43,605 bases of DNA from a virus (Duplodnaviria > Heunggongvirae > Uroviricota > Caudoviricetes). Numbering within the stretch: the stretch's first letter is position 1; every line of letters starts with the position of its first letter. Below, in pieces: positions 15,900 to 31,960 of the stretch. Below the pieces are notes generated by a model. That model saw only the letters and a list, made by a program, of their open reading frames with translations. It searched no databases and was not told where the DNA came from. Made by a program: the position numbers and the translations under genes. The stretch covers positions 1-43,605 of IMG/VR virus record IMGVR_UViG_2579778674_000006; one strand, given 5' to 3'.

Positions 15900-17657
15900 T
15901 TAAAGCGAGCGGATGCCCACGCTGACCAGATGTTCAGACAGATCCAGCTCCGGTTCACCACCATTGACCAGCATCCGGCTCATTGCTGTAAACATCGCAA
16001 CAGGGCCGTCGATTTTGGCTTCCAGCGTGGATTTATTCGGGAAGATATTGTCGTTTTTGTCCGGTTTTACCGTAACGTTAGACATCATCCAGTTCATGAC
16101 CGGATGATTGCTGTGATGGAAACGCCCGGCATAGACCAGTGATTCCGTTTCCTTCATGGCCTCTGACAGATTGCGAACCGTCTGCGGAACCTCCACCAGC
16201 GGTATCCCTTCTTCAGCCAGTGCCAAGCTGAACTGCATCGCGCTCCACGGGTCAAATCCCAGTTCCCTGAGGTTTTCACCACCAATCCATTCCAGTAAGT
16301 CACTTTTTATCTGAGCATGATCGATAACATCACCATCCGTCAGAATCAGCTTATCCATCTCCGCCCACTTCCGGTAAAGTTCTGCCTGCTGCCGCGAGCA
16401 TCGTTCCAGCCGTCCTTCCGGAAGCCAGAATTTAAAATCGGCATGAACATGCCCGTTATCCGTTCGCCAGAGTTTTGCCGCCGCACAGATATCAATCTTA
16501 TGAGCAAGGTCAACGCCGACCCACATGGGATACGTTTTCAGCTCATGTCGTGGGGCAATGTATTCGCACTTCTCCCACTTAATCATGTCCATCCAGGCAG
16601 ACTCTGCTGTTACCCACACATTCATGTGTTTGGTAAAAAAATTCACCCGCGCAGAGACCTGTTCTTTCGCTTTTTTCGCCAGGCGACGCAGATCATCCCA
16701 GCGTTTACAGATGCCCAGGCCGGGATTCGCTTTCTGCCAGACCGTTTCATCAAACGGATCATCTCCCTCATCGAGGGTGTAAATAATCGCAAAGTAGGAG
16801 TCGTCTTTTACCGCGCCCTCCACGTCGCTGTTATAGCCACGCAATACCTTGATGGCGTAATCACGCTGCTCGTAACAAATCCCTTCCTTGTTAAACCCTG
16901 CCGTGGTGATACCAAATAAAAGGGACTGCAGACGGGCACCGGTTGCCGTTTCCAGAACGTCCCACACGTCACGGGTTTTATGTGCATGCAGCTCATCAAT
17001 AATGGCGCAGTGGATGTTCAGACCATCCAGGTTGTTTGCATCCGAAGAAAGCGGTTCAAATTTTGATGCGCTCTGCTCCTGGTAAATCGCCAGCTTGTTG
17101 AAATCAAACAACCGCCCGAGTGTCGACCGGGCTTTTCTGACCATATTTTTGGCGTCTTCAAACACGATTCTGGCCTGGTCACGCGTGGTTGCGGCTGAAT
17201 ACACCTCAGCTCCGCCTTCACCATCTGCCCCCGTCATATACAGGCCGATACCCGATGACAGAGTTGATTTTGCGTTTTTACGGGCGACTTCGTTGTACGC
17301 CGTCCGGAACCGGCGCACCATCACCGGATGTCCGCTGCCATCGCTGCGCATGACAACTTCCCCGGTCTCTTCATTGACCAGCGGAATGACAAAACCAAAA
17401 ATATTAATGAGGATAAATACATGCCAGTCCATCAACTCAATGGGCTGGCCTGCCAGCGCCCCTTTTACATGAGGCACAAATTTGTAGAAATTCAGGATGT
17501 GCTGCGCACGGGGTTCGCTGAAATAAATCCCCCGCTCTTCGCCGTACTTCAGATCATCAAGAAAACGCTGGCAGGCCAGGCGGACAAATTCGCCAGCAAC
17601 AATTTCTCCTGCAACAACACGTTCGGCGTAGCGGATCCCGTCAGCCACTTTTGCCAT
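15900..17657 (-). CDS. Terminase large subunit
   Basis: 585-aa ORF; N-terminal ATPase-like region and C-terminal nuclease-like region; directly downstream of the small subunit. Confidence 0.9.
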
Positions 17658-18139
17658 CAGTCTCTCGCTTTTAAAAGCTCCGCCAGCGGATCAACATCAT
17701 CCGGTCCGGCGATATTTACTTTAGCCCGGCTTGCCGGTGACATACCAAACTCTGCAAGCATTGCCCGGATCCGCTTCCAGGCATCCGCTTTCATTGCCGC
17801 CGCGGGGTGCGCCTTAATCAGTACATCACCGCTCTGCGTTTCCGTGCGGTAGGTATACCCCTCAACATCGAGTGTTTCGCAGTGATGCCGATATTCGGTG
17901 TAGGCTTCCACCAGCAACTCGAGCGCACGCGCATCAAGCTGAGAAATGATCCCTTCCGCATTCAGCTCTTCCGCCATTCGCCTGAACCAGTACTTCCCCT
18001 GTGCCCCTAAATGCTGCGGAATTTTAGGAAGACCTTTTTCATCCTTTTTAGCGGTTTTTTTGGGGTCTTTAACGGGGCGCTTTGAGGGGTTGCCTCGTAT
18101 CAAATGCAGGCGTGGCGGGGTTTTCGGAGGTCCTGACAT
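17657..18139 (-). CDS. Terminase small subunit
   Basis: 160-aa ORF, basic N-terminus (MSGPPKTPPRLHLIRGNPSKRPVKDPKKTAKK), start overlaps terminase large. Confidence 0.85.
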   Translation of the reverse strand: MSGPPKTPPRLHLIRGNPSKRPVKDPKKTAKKDEKGLPKIPQHLGAQGKYWFRRMAEELNAEGIISQLDARALELLVEAYTEYRHHCETLDVEGYTYRTETQSGDVLIKAHPAAAMKADAWKRIRAMLAEFGMSPASRAKVNIAGPDDVDPLAELLKARD

Positions 18140-18286: not shown

Positions 18287-18637
18287 TCAATTGATGCGTT
18301 CGCGCGCTGTTTTTGCTTTATGACAGGGCCAGCACAGACTCTGCAGGTTACTGTCTGCATCCGTGCCACCATGAGCTTTCGGAATGATGTGGTCCACAGT
18401 TCTGGCTTCAACGGCTCTCCCATTGCGCAGGCAGTTCTGACACAGATGATTATCACGCTTCAGTATGCGCGCACGTATGGCATCCCATTTCGAGCCATAG
18501 CCACGCTGGTGGCGGCTCAGTCCGCGTTGATGCTGTACCCATCCTTCGCCACGATGTTTATCGCAGTAACCAGAACTGTCTGTGGTTGTACCTGCACATC
18601 CACGCTTACGGCAGGCGCGTGGGATTAGTGCTGGCAT
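18287..18637 (-). CDS. HNH endonuclease (packaging-associated)
   Basis: 116-aa ORF with Cys-rich ends and a HIIPKAHGGTDADSNLQSLCWPCH motif; immediately upstream of terminase small. Confidence 0.85.
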   Translation of the reverse strand: MPALIPRACRKRGCAGTTTDSSGYCDKHRGEGWVQHQRGLSRHQRGYGSKWDAIRARILKRDNHLCQNCLRNGRAVEARTVDHIIPKAHGGTDADSNLQSLCWPCHKAKTARERIN

Positions 18638-18775
18638 GTTTCGCCCTTATATAAATCAAAGGTGACCTGCATTGAGTATCTCCATGGAATAGATTTGCTG
18701 CTGATATGAGACAGATCAATAGACTTCATGAGCCAACGGGTGTAGATATTACTTTTTACTTCAGAGGGTTAACTC

Positions 18776-19315
18776 ATGGATATTAAAGATAAAATCAATA
18801 CCATTTTGTTATGTGACATTGCCATCCACCTAGGTATCGAAACTGATATTGATCCACAGCTTGTTAAATATGCTGTGTCATCTGGTAATGATTGGGTTAT
18901 CAAGGCCGAATATTCACATTTGGATGTTGACGAACCAAGTAAAGAAGATCGTGATTTTGTTACTGCTGTCTTGAATATGTATCGCGGACTTTCCAATGCT
19001 TTCAGGAAACTTAGTGATGACGAGCAAAAAGAATTAGTCCGTGACCATCATCTAAAAATACATGATGGGGCAATTCAGCTCCCAGGTTTCGACGGTAATA
19101 ATGAATGCGATTACTTCAGTATCATTGAGGCATATCAGAAAATTGATCGCTTCCCCGAACAGAAACAGCCCATTGCCAATACTCATTCACGTACAGAACA
19201 TCTCTATAACGCAATGCTTGATGAGTTTAAGAAAATTGACGCTGTAAATCGAAGCTGGGATTTATCGAAGGAAGAACTGGCATCCATTCTTTCCACAGCT
19301 CCACGCAGTTTCTAA
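18776..19315 (+). CDS. YfbU-family (UPF0304-like) protein, moron on the opposite strand
   Basis: 179-aa ORF, AT-rich, RBS AGAGGG before ATG; several motifs align with my recollection of E. coli YfbU (MY..L, LPGFD, THxxxxxxxY..ML). Confidence 0.55.
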   Translation: MDIKDKINTILLCDIAIHLGIETDIDPQLVKYAVSSGNDWVIKAEYSHLDVDEPSKEDRDFVTAVLNMYRGLSNAFRKLSDDEQKELVRDHHLKIHDGAIQLPGFDGNNECDYFSIIEAYQKIDRFPEQKQPIANTHSRTEHLYNAMLDEFKKIDAVNRSWDLSKEELASILSTAPRSF

Positions 19316-19320
19316 GTGCT

Positions 19321-19587
19321 TTAGGCGGGTTTCCAACCCGCCTTATTATGCTCGTATATAGAGAAGGAAGCACCCAAATTAACCAGCGCGGATTTCTTTT
19401 CCTCAATACGGCTGTTAAGTTCAGCAACTGCATGCGGGCGTATGGCCTCAAGAAAAGCACTATATTGATAGGCAGACTGGATTGTCACACCAAGCCCTGC
19501 ACCACTTTCCAGTATACCTTTCTGTCGCTGTAGCTCTTTCATCTCGTTATAGATGTAATGTGCGTTACTTAGGTTTTCTACGTTCAC
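19321..19587 (-). CDS. Hypothetical protein convergent with the YfbU-like gene
   Basis: 88-aa ORF, AT-rich, no recognisable family. Confidence 0.45.
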   Translation of the reverse strand: MNVENLSNAHYIYNEMKELQRQKGILESGAGLGVTIQSAYQYSAFLEAIRPHAVAELNSRIEEKKSALVNLGASFSIYEHNKAGWKPA

Positions 19588-19742
19588 GCCCTAAGTTCTT
19601 CCTGCAGTTAGCCTGCACTGATTTGTTATGCGCCAATATGTCCCGCTTCGTCTGTTGCATTATCATAAGTAATAGCGTAGGTTGACACCTTGGCTCTCTT
19701 TCGCCACCGGCGAATCTTTAGCGGATTATCCTTGGCCGGTTT

Positions 19743-20225
19743 TTATCTGAGACATTGCTCACGAATGTATAGCTGTGCCCCTTCCAGTTGCTTCTGCATC
19801 GTCATCAACCGTTCTCTGAGGGTGAAATAATCCCGTTCAGCGGTGTCTGCCAGTCTGGGGCTGGTTGCATTATCCACGCTGGTGGGTCCGGTGGCTTCAC
19901 GCACGGCTGCGGAGCAACTGGCATTGACCCGCAGGCGCTTACGACCAGCGGCAACATCAGCGCGCAGAGTTTCATTTTCAGCTTTCGCATTGGCTAATTC
20001 TCTCGAGTACTTTGCATCGAGCGCAGCAACATCACGCTGACGCTGCTGCATGTCAGCGATGGTGGCGGTCAGCTGCTTCAGCTCACTGACTTTTTTATCA
20101 CGCTGTTCTTTGTAGGTGATGGCGTTATCACGGTAATGATTGACCGCCCACGACAGGCAGACGATGATGCAGATAACCAGAGCATAAATAATCGCGGCGA
20201 CTCTGCTCACTGATCTATTCCCCAA
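19743..20225 (-). CDS. Rz: Spanin inner-membrane subunit Rz
   Basis: 160-aa ORF with N-terminal TM ([20 protein letters not shown]) and coiled-coil; downstream of the endolysin. Confidence 0.85.
19805..19990 (-). CDS. Rz1: Spanin outer-membrane lipoprotein Rz1, embedded in Rz
   Basis: 61-aa ORF in the +1 frame inside Rz, lipobox LVVSAC, Pro-rich. Confidence 0.8.
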
Positions 20226-20740
20226 CAGGCTAATGCGCTTTCTTGGTCACGACGAATAACCTGTCCATAGCAGTTATTTGAACGTATGCGGCAATCGCGC
20301 CCACCATCTTTTATCCACCAGCGAATCGCCTCGCATGCGCCCTTACGATCACCAGCATTCAGCCGCTTATAAAACGTCGATGGAAAACACTTACCGGGGC
20401 CAATGTTATAGGGACAAAATGACGCGATACCCGCTTTTTGTGGTTCGGTCAGTGGTACTTTAATATTGCGCTCCACCCATGCCAGCGCCTTATCACGCTC
20501 AATGGCGTTGACCTGGTCGCATTTTTCCTTCGACAGTTTCATACCGGGAAAAACGGGTTTTCCATCCACCATCGTGGCACCCCGACAGATGGTCCAGATG
20601 CCGGAACCATCGCGGTATGCCGTTGTGTGGTTACCTTCTTTTTCATCCAGAAACTGGTCGAGAATATCAGGCGCGGGCGCACCGACGGCAATCAGTGCCA
20701 GAACGGCAGCCGACAGGCCGTATCTGATTTTTGCGTTCAT
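20207..20740 (-). CDS. R: SAR endolysin (lysozyme)
   Basis: 177-aa ORF with N-terminal signal-anchor-release segment ([16 protein letters not shown]) followed by a lysozyme-like domain. Confidence 0.85.
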
Positions 20741-20803: not shown

Positions 20804-21154
20804 TTAAGGTTGTGATTCCGGAGGAGTCTTCAGAGAACCAGTAATTCTTCCTGGTAGCTTTCCTTTGTAGGTTATCCACACATTCTGCGCCTCTAAAATT
20901 ACGGGGCGCTTTTCCGGCGACTGCTCATCCCCTTCACATAACCCGGCAGCAACATCCAGGAAGACCTGTCTGATGCTCCTTCTGGCTGCTGCCTCATAAA
21001 ACCCCAGCGCGGCACCTTCAACACGGTCCAGCGAGATGTCCAGGTCAAAAATTTCACCGTCAAAGCGTTTTTTGTCCCGTAACGCTAAAGTTACCGTAAC
21101 TTTATTCTCAAAATTGCGGATCCCTTTCACAATCAGTTCATAGTTTTGAGTCAT
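20804..21154 (-). CDS. DUF1327-like protein between holin and endolysin (YdfR-like)
   Basis: 116-aa ORF, MTQNYELIVKGIRNFENKVTVTLAL...; same position as ydfR in prophage Qin by recollection. Confidence 0.55.
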   Translation of the reverse strand: MTQNYELIVKGIRNFENKVTVTLALRDKKRFDGEIFDLDISLDRVEGAALGFYEAAARRSIRQVFLDVAAGLCEGDEQSPEKRPVILEAQNVWITYKGKLPGRITGSLKTPPESQP

Positions 21155-21158
21155 TGAA

Positions 21159-21374
21159 TTACTCTCCCCGTGCAGCCTTACGCTTGTCTTCTCTGATTTT
21201 GAAGTACAGATTTGTCAGATAAGTCAGGAAGCCCAGAACCAGACTCCCCAGTACACCAATCGCAGCCCACTGTGACGGACTGACCTGATCAAGCCACTGT
21301 AAAAACCAGTAGCCAGCACTGCCTGCGGAGGTGCCATAGGCAATGCCCGTTGAAATTTTGTCCATGGATTTCAT
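21159..21374 (-). CDS. S: Class II holin / pinholin (phage 21 S-like)
   Basis: 71-aa ORF with dual-start motif MKSMDK and two TM segments; matches phage 21 S as I recall it. Confidence 0.85.
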
Positions 21375-21665: not shown

Positions 21666-21740
<75 letters not shown>

Positions 21741-21743
21741 CAT

Positions 21744-21820
<77 letters not shown>

Positions 21821-21821
21821 A

Positions 21822-21898
21822 CTGGACCGCCACCGGGGACTCGAACCTCGCACACTCAACTTAAAGGGTTGACGCTCTTTCCTGATGAACTGGTGACG
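21822..21898 (-). tRNA. tRNA-like gene, anticodon UUU if the loop is read canonically (Lys?), with unusual C33
   Basis: 77-nt cloverleaf, acceptor CCGTCAC/GTGGCGG with one G-U pair, anticodon loop CCUUUAA, T-loop TTCGAGT, CCA end; one T-stem mismatch. Confidence 0.5.
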
Positions 21899-21899
21899 G

Positions 21900-21975
21900 T
21901 TGGTGGCCCTTGCTGGATTTGAACCAGCGACCTGGCGATTATGAGTCGCTCGCTCTCACCACTGAGCTAAAGGGC
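21900..21975 (-). tRNA. tRNA with CAU anticodon (Met or lysidine Ile2, ileX-like)
   Basis: 76-nt cloverleaf, perfect acceptor GGCCCTT/AAGGGCC, anticodon loop CUCAUAA, T-loop TTCAAAT, CCA end. Confidence 0.8.
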
Positions 21976-22093
21976 CGGGCGCAGGATAATAACGTTACGA
22001 AATCAATGTTGCAAGCATTCAAAAATCACCTGGTTAAAAATCACCCTTAGCTCCTCCACCAGCGCATTCACCATGTCTATCCGAGATAAGTGG

Positions 22094-25490: not shown

Positions 25491-25743
25491 AGCCTGCTTC
25501 TCCTTGCCTTTCGGCACGTAAGAGGCTAACCTAGATTTGCCGTTCATAGATTGAGCCTCAGATTAATGTTAAGCGTCTTGCAGGACGCGTAATGTTAACT
25601 GGGGCTTTTCTCTATCTGCCTTTGGTGTTCATGCCTGAGGCAGATAGCCTCAAGCACCCGCAGCAATTCTACTTAAGTTAGATAAGCTTTTCTATGGTAT
25701 TCTCTCAGCGTCCCGTAAATACAGTCTCGGCTCATCATTTTTA

Positions 25744-30924: not shown

Positions 30925-31490
30925 AGCTAACCAACGAAGCTAAGGTTGGTAATTAAGGAGTTCTCCACGGGTGAGGTGGAGTGCGTGCGCCGGACACGGG
31001 TGAGCATCCGGCACTGACAGTTTACTGAAAGGATATTTCCCTGAAAAGTCAGACCATAACGCGAAAGCGCACGGCGAGGTAGCTGGTTCATAGATAGCCT
31101 GTCGTTAAATTTTCGTCGACCGTGCGCTTCCGGTTGTGGCACTCCGCGAAATGGCGCGGCGGTAAGTATGGCGGGGTTATTCCTTCCCCGTTGAGGACAC
31201 CGGGTTGTCAGGTTGACCATACGCTTAAGTGACAACCCCGCTGCAACGCCCTCTGTTATCAATTTTCTGGTGACGTTTGGCGGTATCAGTTTTACTCCGT
31301 GACTGCTCTGCCGCCCTTTTTAAAGTGAATTTTGTGATGCGGTGAATGCGGCTAAGCGCACGCGGAACAGTTAAAACCAAAAACAGTGTTATGGGTGGAT
31401 TCTCTGTATCCGGCGTTAATTGTTAACTGGTTAACGTCACCTGGAGGCACCAGGCACCGCATCACAAAACTCATTGTTGAGGGCGCGATA
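30925..31490. other. ORF-free, GC-rich, self-complementary segment: candidate structured RNA or regulatory region
   Basis: No credible ORF on either strand; several mutually complementary segments (gccgga/tccggc, cgtgcgc/gcgcacg, ggagtgc/gcactcc, ggttgtca/tgacaacc). Confidence 0.4.
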
Positions 31491-31679
31491 ATGAAAACGT
31501 TATTACCAAACGTTAATACGTCTGAAGGTTGTTTTGAAATTGGTGTCACTATCAGTAATCCTGTATTTACTGAAGATGCCATTAACAAAAGAAAACACGA
31601 ACGGGAGTTATTAAATAAAGTATGCATTGTTTCAATGCTGGCCCGTTTACGTCTGATGCCAAAAGGATGTGCACAATGA
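31491..31679 (+). CDS. Small early protein (62 aa)
   Basis: Start inside ORF 31386..31679 at MKTLLPNVNTSEGCFEIG...; its stop overlaps the next start (ATGA). Confidence 0.55.
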   Translation: MKTLLPNVNTSEGCFEIGVTISNPVFTEDAINKRKHERELLNKVCIVSMLARLRLMPKGCAQ

Positions 31680-31867
31680 ATCCAGTATTTGCACTTATTC
31701 TGACGGTTTTTCTTGTTTCCGGAGAGCCAGTTGATATTGCAGTCAGTGTTCACAGAACAAAGCAGGAATGTATGGCAGCAGCAACCGAACAGAAAATTCC
31801 AGGCAACTGTTATCCGGTCGATAAAGTTATTCACCAGGATAATAACGAAATCCCGGCAGGATTTTAA
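31676..31867 (+). CDS. Small early protein (63 aa) with N-terminal hydrophobic segment
   Basis: Start inside ORF 31622..31867 at MNPVFALILTVFLVSGEPV...; translationally coupled to the upstream gene. Confidence 0.55.
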   Translation: MNPVFALILTVFLVSGEPVDIAVSVHRTKQECMAAATEQKIPGNCYPVDKVIHQDNNEIPAGF

Positions 31868-31960
31868 AACAGCACCGTAATAAATATCCAGTTTCATTCT
31901 TATATGTCAGCAATGGCAGAGATTTGTTCACCCTTAAATCTGTGATGAGGTTTACCAATA

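Follow-up and report, generated by a model that had tools for sequence, protein, structure and literature searches.

A pair of convergent genes lodged between the packaging and lysis genes of a prophage raises the question of whether the two were acquired together and act together, or whether only one of them is cargo. We address it for a 43,605-nucleotide stretch of an Escherichia coli lambdoid prophage (hereafter the window; IMG/VR record IMGVR_UViG_2579778674_000006), in which the late genes are on the minus strand. One open reading frame (ORF), of 179 aa and with an ATG start, lies at 18776-19315 on the plus strand, antisense to the late operon; a second, of 88 aa and with a GTG start, lies at 19321-19587 on the minus strand, in the direction of the late genes, and the stop codons of the two are 5 bp apart. 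To their left is the HNH endonuclease gene of the packaging module (18287-18637, minus strand; Pfam HNH 60.4 bits, with which the RefSeq annotation agrees), and to their right, at the end of the lysis cassette, the gene of the i-spanin Rz (19743-20225, minus strand; a 'lysis protein' in RefSeq). A reading made from the sequence only had given this layout exactly as the ORF list, Pfam and RefSeq have it, and had taken the two ORFs for a moron pair. In our analysis, only the plus-strand gene, antisense, aberrant in composition and followed by a hairpin of its own, is a moron, and the 88-aa gene runs with the late operon. The segment from 18638 to about 19345 is almost certainly a one-gene moron of the YfbU family, consisting of an upstream control region with an inferred promoter, the 179-aa gene and a putative hairpin terminator of its own.

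Both ORFs are known from annotated genomes. The same segment occurs, identical, in RefSeq E. coli genomes, where the automatic annotation (PGAP) has named the products 'YfbU family protein' (WP_000351660.1) and 'hypothetical protein' (WP_001100260.1). Each ORF matches a PHROG family, the longer phrog_6084 (E 8e-83) and the shorter phrog_5415 (E 2e-38), and given these matches and the many homologues of both, neither can be due to chance.

The variable site and the YfbU gene

In the E. coli sister prophages that we compared (L009, L010 and L011 in our numbering of loci), the HNH and Rz genes are near-identical to those of the window, and it is the content of the junction that differs. The site is empty in L010, with 42 bp from HNH to Rz; it holds iss/bor in L011 and a GNAT acetyltransferase gene with a 66-aa ORF in L009, in both cases antisense to the late genes. 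The left breakpoint of homology falls at 18637/18638, the HNH start codon, in all of them, and on the right homology resumes at 19773 with the empty site, at 19744 with iss and at 19603 with the acetyltransferase. The HNH/Rz junction, equivalent to 18638-19772 of the window, is a hot spot for cargo that is antisense throughout, which bears out the earlier description of the place as a moron site. In a further sister prophage (L012), a 171-aa opposite-strand gene is placed between terS and HNH instead. The closest parallel is the bor/iss moron of lambda, an autonomous one-gene unit that is likewise antisense and sits at the same site, where the lysis cassette gives way to the packaging genes (the Rz-to-cos junction). 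The cargo is of another kind, however: Bor/Iss, a lipoprotein of the outer membrane, provides serum resistance, whereas the 179-aa protein lacks both signal peptide and lipobox and should, by prediction, be soluble and helical.

The composition of the 179-aa ORF sets it apart from its surroundings. Its guanine-cytosine (GC) content, and that of the spacer upstream, is 39.1%, against a window mean of 50.6%, and only 0.8% of 540-nt segments are as GC-poor; at third codon positions, the GC fraction is 0.34, compared with 0.48-0.58 in the neighbouring genes. The sequence-only reading had called both ORFs AT-rich relative to their neighbours, and for the second one this holds in part: at 45.3%, the 88-aa ORF is below Rz (53.0%) and HNH (54.4%), but it falls at the 17th percentile of 267-nt segments and is for that reason no GC outlier. 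For the moron itself we followed Cumby et al. (2012, PMC3594210), with whom the term denotes a self-contained accessory unit of a phage genome: the YfbU gene lies between genes that are adjacent in related phages, deviates in composition, is on the strand opposite to every flanking late gene and is followed by what appears to be its own terminator, if one with a weak T-run.

The AT-rich spacer of 138 bp ahead of the gene (18638-18775, plus strand), delimited by its GC content, its conservation and the homology breakpoint, contains promoter-like elements, a -35-like TAGACT at 18720-18725 and a -10-like GATATT at 18745-18750 with 19 nt between them, as well as a Shine-Dalgarno sequence, GAGGG, at 18764-18768, 7 nt ahead of the ATG. 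Seven loci whose YfbU genes are 75-100% identical share ATAGACTT, GATATTA and CTTTTACTTCAGAGGGTTA, with a spacer that varies from 17 to 19 nt, and the leader with GAGGG is kept across the same seven; from this pattern we infer a promoter upstream of the YfbU gene. At the other end, a GC-rich hairpin, AGGCGGGTT-TCC-AACCCGCCT, stands 8 nt past the YfbU stop codon at 19323-19343 (plus strand), with TATTAT behind it; it is contained in the tail at the 3' end of the 88-aa ORF. Its folding energy, -15.9 to -17.1 kcal/mol, together with the presence of hairpins in relatives, makes it a putative intrinsic terminator of the moron. The relatives have post-stop hairpins with different, compensating stems, and among 43 distinct downstream sequences 33 fold with an energy of -10 or below, the median being -15.2. 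These hairpins were folded one by one; a formal count of covariation was dropped, with nine of the sequences out of register.

The family assignment proposed by the sequence-only reading proved correct. The Pfam YfbU profile (PF03887, or UPF0304) matches residues 46-172 of the 179-aa protein at 46.3 bits, compared with a cut-off of 25 (E 6.5e-12), and a profile built from 35 members of the subfamily matches E. coli YfbU (1wpb, 4lr3) over residues 54-173 with E 4e-9. In the alignment to 1wpb, pGFDgnnE pairs with lGFDaatE and ekYkaML with ekYqrML, so that the GFD...E loop and the C-terminal Y..ML helix of YfbU are both present. Nine residues are invariant in the prophage subfamily over sequences down to 28% identity, among them G104, F105, D106, E110, H137 and Y144. 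The AlphaFold2 model of the protein is confident (predicted local distance difference test, pLDDT, 90.3) and all-helical, and in structure comparison it matched YfbU only, with the two-domain helical fold of that family; by fold, the YfbU domain spans the whole of the 179-aa protein. A Pfam match to the restriction endonucleases Cfr10I/Bse634I (18.4 bits, with a cut-off of 27) was rejected as spurious, given this confident all-helical model that matches YfbU alone.

The protein is not the chromosomal YfbU of E. coli on a mobile element, however. The NCBIfam equivalog model for the latter (NF003936 / PRK05445) gives 34.8 bits, far short of the 90 set as its cut-off, and the 179-aa protein is only 15% identical to 4lr3 and 1wpb. 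In the comparison with E. coli YfbU (UPF0304; PDB 1WPB, 4LR3), the N-terminal 50 residues remain unaligned by sequence, and H137, invariant in the prophage subfamily, is absent from the E. coli protein. By these sequence measures, the 179-aa protein belongs to a paralogous YfbU subfamily and is not an orthologue of chromosomal yfbU. The two genes differ in distribution as well: yfbU is chromosomal and of housekeeping type, whereas the prophage gene is accessory, being found in 225 of 5426 complete E. coli genomes (4%), always at an identity of at least 95%.

The wider family comprises 2082 clusters at 50% identity (E <= 1e-3), mostly of 170-190 aa, and tblastn against PLSDB finds YfbU-family genes on many plasmids. 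Some representatives are longer, at about 230 aa (P0191, P0194, P0221 and P0226), and have an N-terminal extension of 55 aa with a weak Pfam match to the ribbon-helix-helix (CopG) domain, at 17-20 bits for a cut-off of 20.5; this suggests that the members of about 230 aa are fusions that bind DNA, with the YfbU domain perhaps serving them for sensing or binding. On plasmid p3 of Enterococcus faecium Aus0085 (L013, 3998-5035), and in about 150 or more Enterococcus plasmid records, there is a YfbU-family gene of 172 aa. Behind the L013 gene, a co-directional gene for a 170-aa hypothetical protein starts after only 7 bp, and because of this the two may form a two-gene unit, unlike the prophage gene.

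The placement of the gene is conserved far beyond the sister prophages. We surveyed 77 IMG/VR loci whose YfbU relatives are 28-100% identical. On the 5' side of the YfbU gene there are terminase or HNH genes in 54 of them, and on its 3' side lysis genes in 69; 49 loci have both and 74 at least one, and the reverse order was found in none. Nor did any of the 77 have a flank gene on the YfbU strand, and the opposite strand holds 87% to 93% of the flanking coding sequence. In prophages of Enterobacter, Providencia and other enterobacteria with YfbU at 50-63% identity (L014-L024), the gene consistently has the lysis cassette on one side and the small terminase subunit on the other and is antisense to both, and this placement is conserved in spite of varied terminases (GpA with DUF1441 or Nu1, P27-type with HNH, and others) and varied lysis cassettes. 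More distant relatives are found elsewhere: one at 32% identity occupies, again in antisense, a different cargo site that lies upstream of the lysis cassette, and a Yersinia P2-like prophage has another at its cargo end. That the YfbU gene is annotated and common was already known, and a YfbU-domain defence gene has been published; what is new, to our knowledge, is that diverse lambdoid prophages have YfbU genes as antisense morons with a fixed place, the lysis/terminase junction, and that the seeming gene pair is fortuitous, as described below. In a Superficieibacter-type prophage (L023/L024, 5990-7488), the YfbU moron, at 63% identity, adjoins a gene pair for a Ser/Thr kinase and a PP2C phosphatase, and a HicAB toxin-antitoxin pair lies upstream of the holin; there is further accessory cargo round the lysis module.

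Such a strictly conserved place beside cos, terminase and lysis genes, in many phage lineages, could also mean that the protein serves the lytic cycle of the phage itself, for example in packaging or in the timing of lysis at the cos/terminase junction, and the Lactococcus YfbU-domain protein Kamadhenu, considered below, does act late in phage development. We nevertheless hold a lytic role to be improbable. Since the gene opposes the late operon in every locus, late transcription would run into it head-on and not express it; it is also absent from close, otherwise intact prophages, where the site is empty or carries iss, so it is dispensable for the phage. The deviant GC content and the hairpin of its own, furthermore, mark separately acquired cargo.

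The small convergent gene and the history of the segment

The 88-aa ORF belongs to a family with another history. The phrog_5415 profile is covered in all of its 76 positions by residues 1-76, the conserved core (19360-19587), and residues 77-88 (19321-19359) are a read-through tail. Homologues form at least 276 clusters, almost all of them 76 aa long and ending in ...SFS. In Citrobacter phage Chris1, in Klebsiella phage ST101-KPC2phi6.3 and in prophages of E. coli and other hosts that have no YfbU gene, the small gene comes directly after the spanin genes on the late strand, once with a 4-bp overlap between it and the spanin gene. The ORF of the window follows its family in standing after the spanin genes and in the direction of the late operon, and departs from it in its 12-residue tail and in an o-spanin relic that separates it from Rz/Rz1. 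The AlphaFold2 model is a helical hairpin, with helices at residues 3-28 and 39-70 and a pLDDT of 77, and had no significant match in the PDB, the best E value being above 1; the sequence searches of Pfam, NCBIfam, PADLOC and the PDB were likewise without a match. Structure prediction for the two proteins, as the sequence-only reading had suggested, thus places the 179-aa protein and leaves the smaller one as a helical hairpin without a significant PDB match. Distant homologues of the 76-aa protein, at 31-46% identity, occur in MH719082.1 (IME392), OP688485.1 (EP_H11), PQ314491.1 and MG973030.1 (Erwinia phage Bue1). Since these are large virulent phages and other members belong to temperate phages, the family is not tied to lambdoid lysis cassettes alone.

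Convergent neighbours with stop codons a few bases apart may look like a functional pair, either toxin-antitoxin-like or two-component, and their association is very tight at close range: the small gene adjoins YfbU in all 35 viral loci whose YfbU is at least 85% identical, a copy is apparently present in all 225 E. coli genomes with the YfbU gene, and the small ORF overlaps the YfbU hairpin. Below 85% identity, on the other hand, the association is gone altogether (0 of 42 loci), and the convergent neighbour in other lineages is an o-spanin gene, a 65-aa ORF or a 143-aa ORF, none of them resembling the 88-aa protein. The survey of neighbours in other prophages, another step that the sequence-only reading had proposed, therefore shows the YfbU gene keeping its locus and the small gene beside it in close relatives only, in line with the separate acquisition that the reading had suspected. 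As already described, the small-gene family also stands after the spanin genes of many phages that lack YfbU. The two genes converge and are not co-transcribed. Moreover, the small gene is a pseudogene in several prophages: it has an internal stop or a frameshift in L027 (2526-2765) and L039 (a stop at codon 41 being among the lesions seen) and a stop in L056, and in L057 its 5' half has been replaced, and in all four YfbU is intact and 93-98% identical.

The overlap with the hairpin, finally, is the outcome of a recent loss of the stop codon. Relatives with YfbU at 89-94% identity (L054-L061) retain the stop of the 76-aa gene, and in the lineage of the window TCT TAA TGC has become TCT ATA TAC, so that translation runs on for 12 codons, through the hairpin. 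We had considered that the stop codon was lost through the insertion of the cassette, and this is ruled out by the relatives that have the same cassette and keep the stop; for the same reason, the 12-residue tail must come from a later point change or indel. A functional pair is thus, in our judgement, very improbable, and the 88-aa gene encodes a small helical late protein that is unrelated to the YfbU gene and not its partner, their adjacency being an accident of neighbourhood. The narrower idea of a type II toxin-antitoxin pair was rejected on the convergent orientation, the co-occurrence limited to one clade and the pseudogenes of the small gene beside an intact YfbU; the sequence-only reading, too, had seen no sign of one.

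The relic mentioned above gives some insight into how the segment was assembled. Between the 88-aa gene and Rz, at 19565-19666 on the minus strand, there is an ORF of 33 aa, MIMQQTKRDILAHNKSVQANCRKNLGRERRKPK, which in comparison with full-length o-spanins turns out to be the 3' end of a second, different o-spanin gene, with the sequence ...QTKRDILAHNKSVQANC...; the ORF in the window begins MIMQQTKRDILAHNKSVQANC..., where the full-length o-spanins of L015, Chris1 and L027 have ...DKQTKRDILAHNKAWQANC. The full-length version of the gene is at 5597-5785 in L015 and at 2743-2949 in L027, and it is complete where the lysis cassette is of the GH19 type (L015, L027 and Chris1). Judged by these sequences, the relic shows where lysis cassettes of two kinds were once joined by recombination. 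As the o-spanin relic is of the GH19-cassette type, the ancestral order was likely that still seen in L027, namely the GH19 cassette, i- and o-spanin, the 76-aa gene, the YfbU moron and HNH, and in the lineage of the window a lambda-type S/R/Rz/Rz1 cassette has taken the place of all that lay upstream of a point midway in the o-spanin gene.

A possible role in phage exclusion

We know of no biochemistry for YfbU (UPF0304), a conserved family with solved structures. The sole functional handles on it are the death of E. coli after DNA damage and the block of phages by Kamadhenu in Lactococcus. Kamadhenu is a 180-aa single-gene YfbU-domain protein encoded on the Lactococcus plasmid pUCCL624_130 (PRJNA1086404; Grafakou et al. 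2024, NAR, PMC11381338), and against Skunavirus phages its phenotype is that of abortive infection (PMC11381338). The phages that escape it are all altered at G22 of their Sak-like single-strand annealing protein (Mosterd et al. 2025, PNAS, PMC12184496), and the replication, transcription and translation of phage DNA proceed unhindered, which suggests that the block comes late (PMC13064643). The protein of the window resembles it in being a single YfbU-domain protein of about 180 aa without an obligatory partner gene and in being carried by a mobile element, here a prophage and there a plasmid; it differs in being the moron of a Gram-negative prophage, Kamadhenu being the product of a Gram-positive plasmid.

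The gene lies antisense to the late operon, and transcription from the repressed prophage is for this reason the most likely; its expression in the lysogen, as suggested by the arrangement of the locus, appears fairly probable. We put forward as the best overall explanation, and give an even chance to, a one-gene YfbU moron that is expressed by the lysogen and excludes phages in the manner of Kamadhenu. The prophage would express the YfbU-like protein in the lysogen, the protein would sense a recombination protein or a recombination intermediate of a superinfecting phage, and it would then halt either the maturation of the phage or the growth of the host, thereby aborting the infection; the lysogen would be protected against other phages, much as by Kamadhenu. 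Taken by itself, the anti-phage role, which is argued by analogy, is a serious possibility that we place somewhat short of an even chance. A more general statement, that YfbU genes are widespread single-protein phage-exclusion morons of the lambdoid prophages of Enterobacterales, fixed at the lysis/terminase junction and sensing the annealing protein of the incoming phage as Kamadhenu may do, is doubtful. If it were true, E. coli would, in its chromosomal 'death protein' YfbU, have domesticated a relative of an anti-phage effector.

Several points weigh against this explanation. The match of the promoter-like elements to the sigma-70 consensus, obtained with a relaxed scan, is weak, at 8 of 12 positions and with a 19-nt spacer, and a standard sigma-70 scan upstream of the YfbU gene called no promoter; a simple terminator scan similarly did not call the hairpin at 19323-19343, which it missed because of the weak T-run. 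The link to Kamadhenu is one of shared Pfam family, size and fold and not of sequence comparison: among the matches listed for tblastn of the 179-aa protein and of the Enterococcus plasmid YfbU against PLSDB there was no Lactococcus record, and a protein search seeded with the Enterococcus plasmid YfbU returned Enterococcus-type relatives only. The low identity to E. coli YfbU, itself a protein without known biochemical activity, makes that comparison, too, a distant one. The PADLOC 2023 models gave no match for the 179-aa protein, a negative that is uninformative, as Kamadhenu is outside that library; it is absent from both PADLOC and DefenseFinder (PMC13335696). The position of the gene, lastly, says 'accessory' and not 'defence', given that non-defence cargo in the form of Iss/Bor occupies the same site.

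The weak promoter match could also be taken as a sign that the gene is a decaying, non-functional remnant, an idea that we find hardly credible. The frame is intact, at 95-100% identity, in 224 of the 225 E. coli genomes that have the gene, the invariant residues persist down to 28% identity, the AlphaFold2 model is confident, and the upstream and hairpin elements are conserved.

The main rival to phage exclusion is a gene of lysogenic conversion with a role in host physiology apart from defence, for example in a pathway of death under DNA damage or stress, which could alter how well the lysogen survives or what prophage induction leads to. The death of E. coli cells after DNA damage requires yfbU, and deletion of the gene abolishes this mazEF-linked death (PMC2646832); iss/bor and the GNAT acetyltransferase, the cargo of sister prophages at the same site, are not defence genes, and the weak N-terminal ribbon-helix-helix match in some members of the family hints at a domain for sensing or regulation. 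As shown by the equivalog score and the 15% identity, however, the prophage protein and chromosomal YfbU are not orthologues, and the sole YfbU-family protein of such a size with a tested function on a mobile element is anti-phage. We regard the physiological role as unlikely on balance, and phage exclusion remains our preferred reading. Taken as a segment of 723 bp (18638-19360), the moron is a well-defined test case in E. coli that could extend Kamadhenu-type defence to the prophages of Gram-negative bacteria and help to assign a function to the YfbU family, now that the tempting misreading of the locus as a gene pair is corrected.

Neighbouring genes and other features of the window

The remaining genes around the variable site are all on the minus strand and follow from the ORF list, Pfam and the RefSeq annotation. 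On the packaging side these are terL (15900-17657) and terS of the P27 family (17657-18139). On the lysis side, Rz1 (19805-19990; ORF list and RefSeq annotation) is embedded in Rz, and next come the genes of a lysozyme (20207-20740), of a YdfR/DUF1327 protein (20804-21154) and of the holin (21159-21374). Between the holin and the Q antiterminator gene there are four tRNA genes (21667-21976, minus strand), for Gly-tcc, Thr-tgt, Lys-ttt and one with the anticodon CAT, which is Met according to ARAGORN and Ile according to RefSeq. Two further patches of the window, at about 25530-25650 and about 31470-31900, are as GC-poor as the YfbU cassette (38-39%). In the RefSeq annotation of the identical prophage, the first adjoins hokD, and the second contains only small unassigned ORFs, upstream of a gene of 813 aa; both patches may be further morons.

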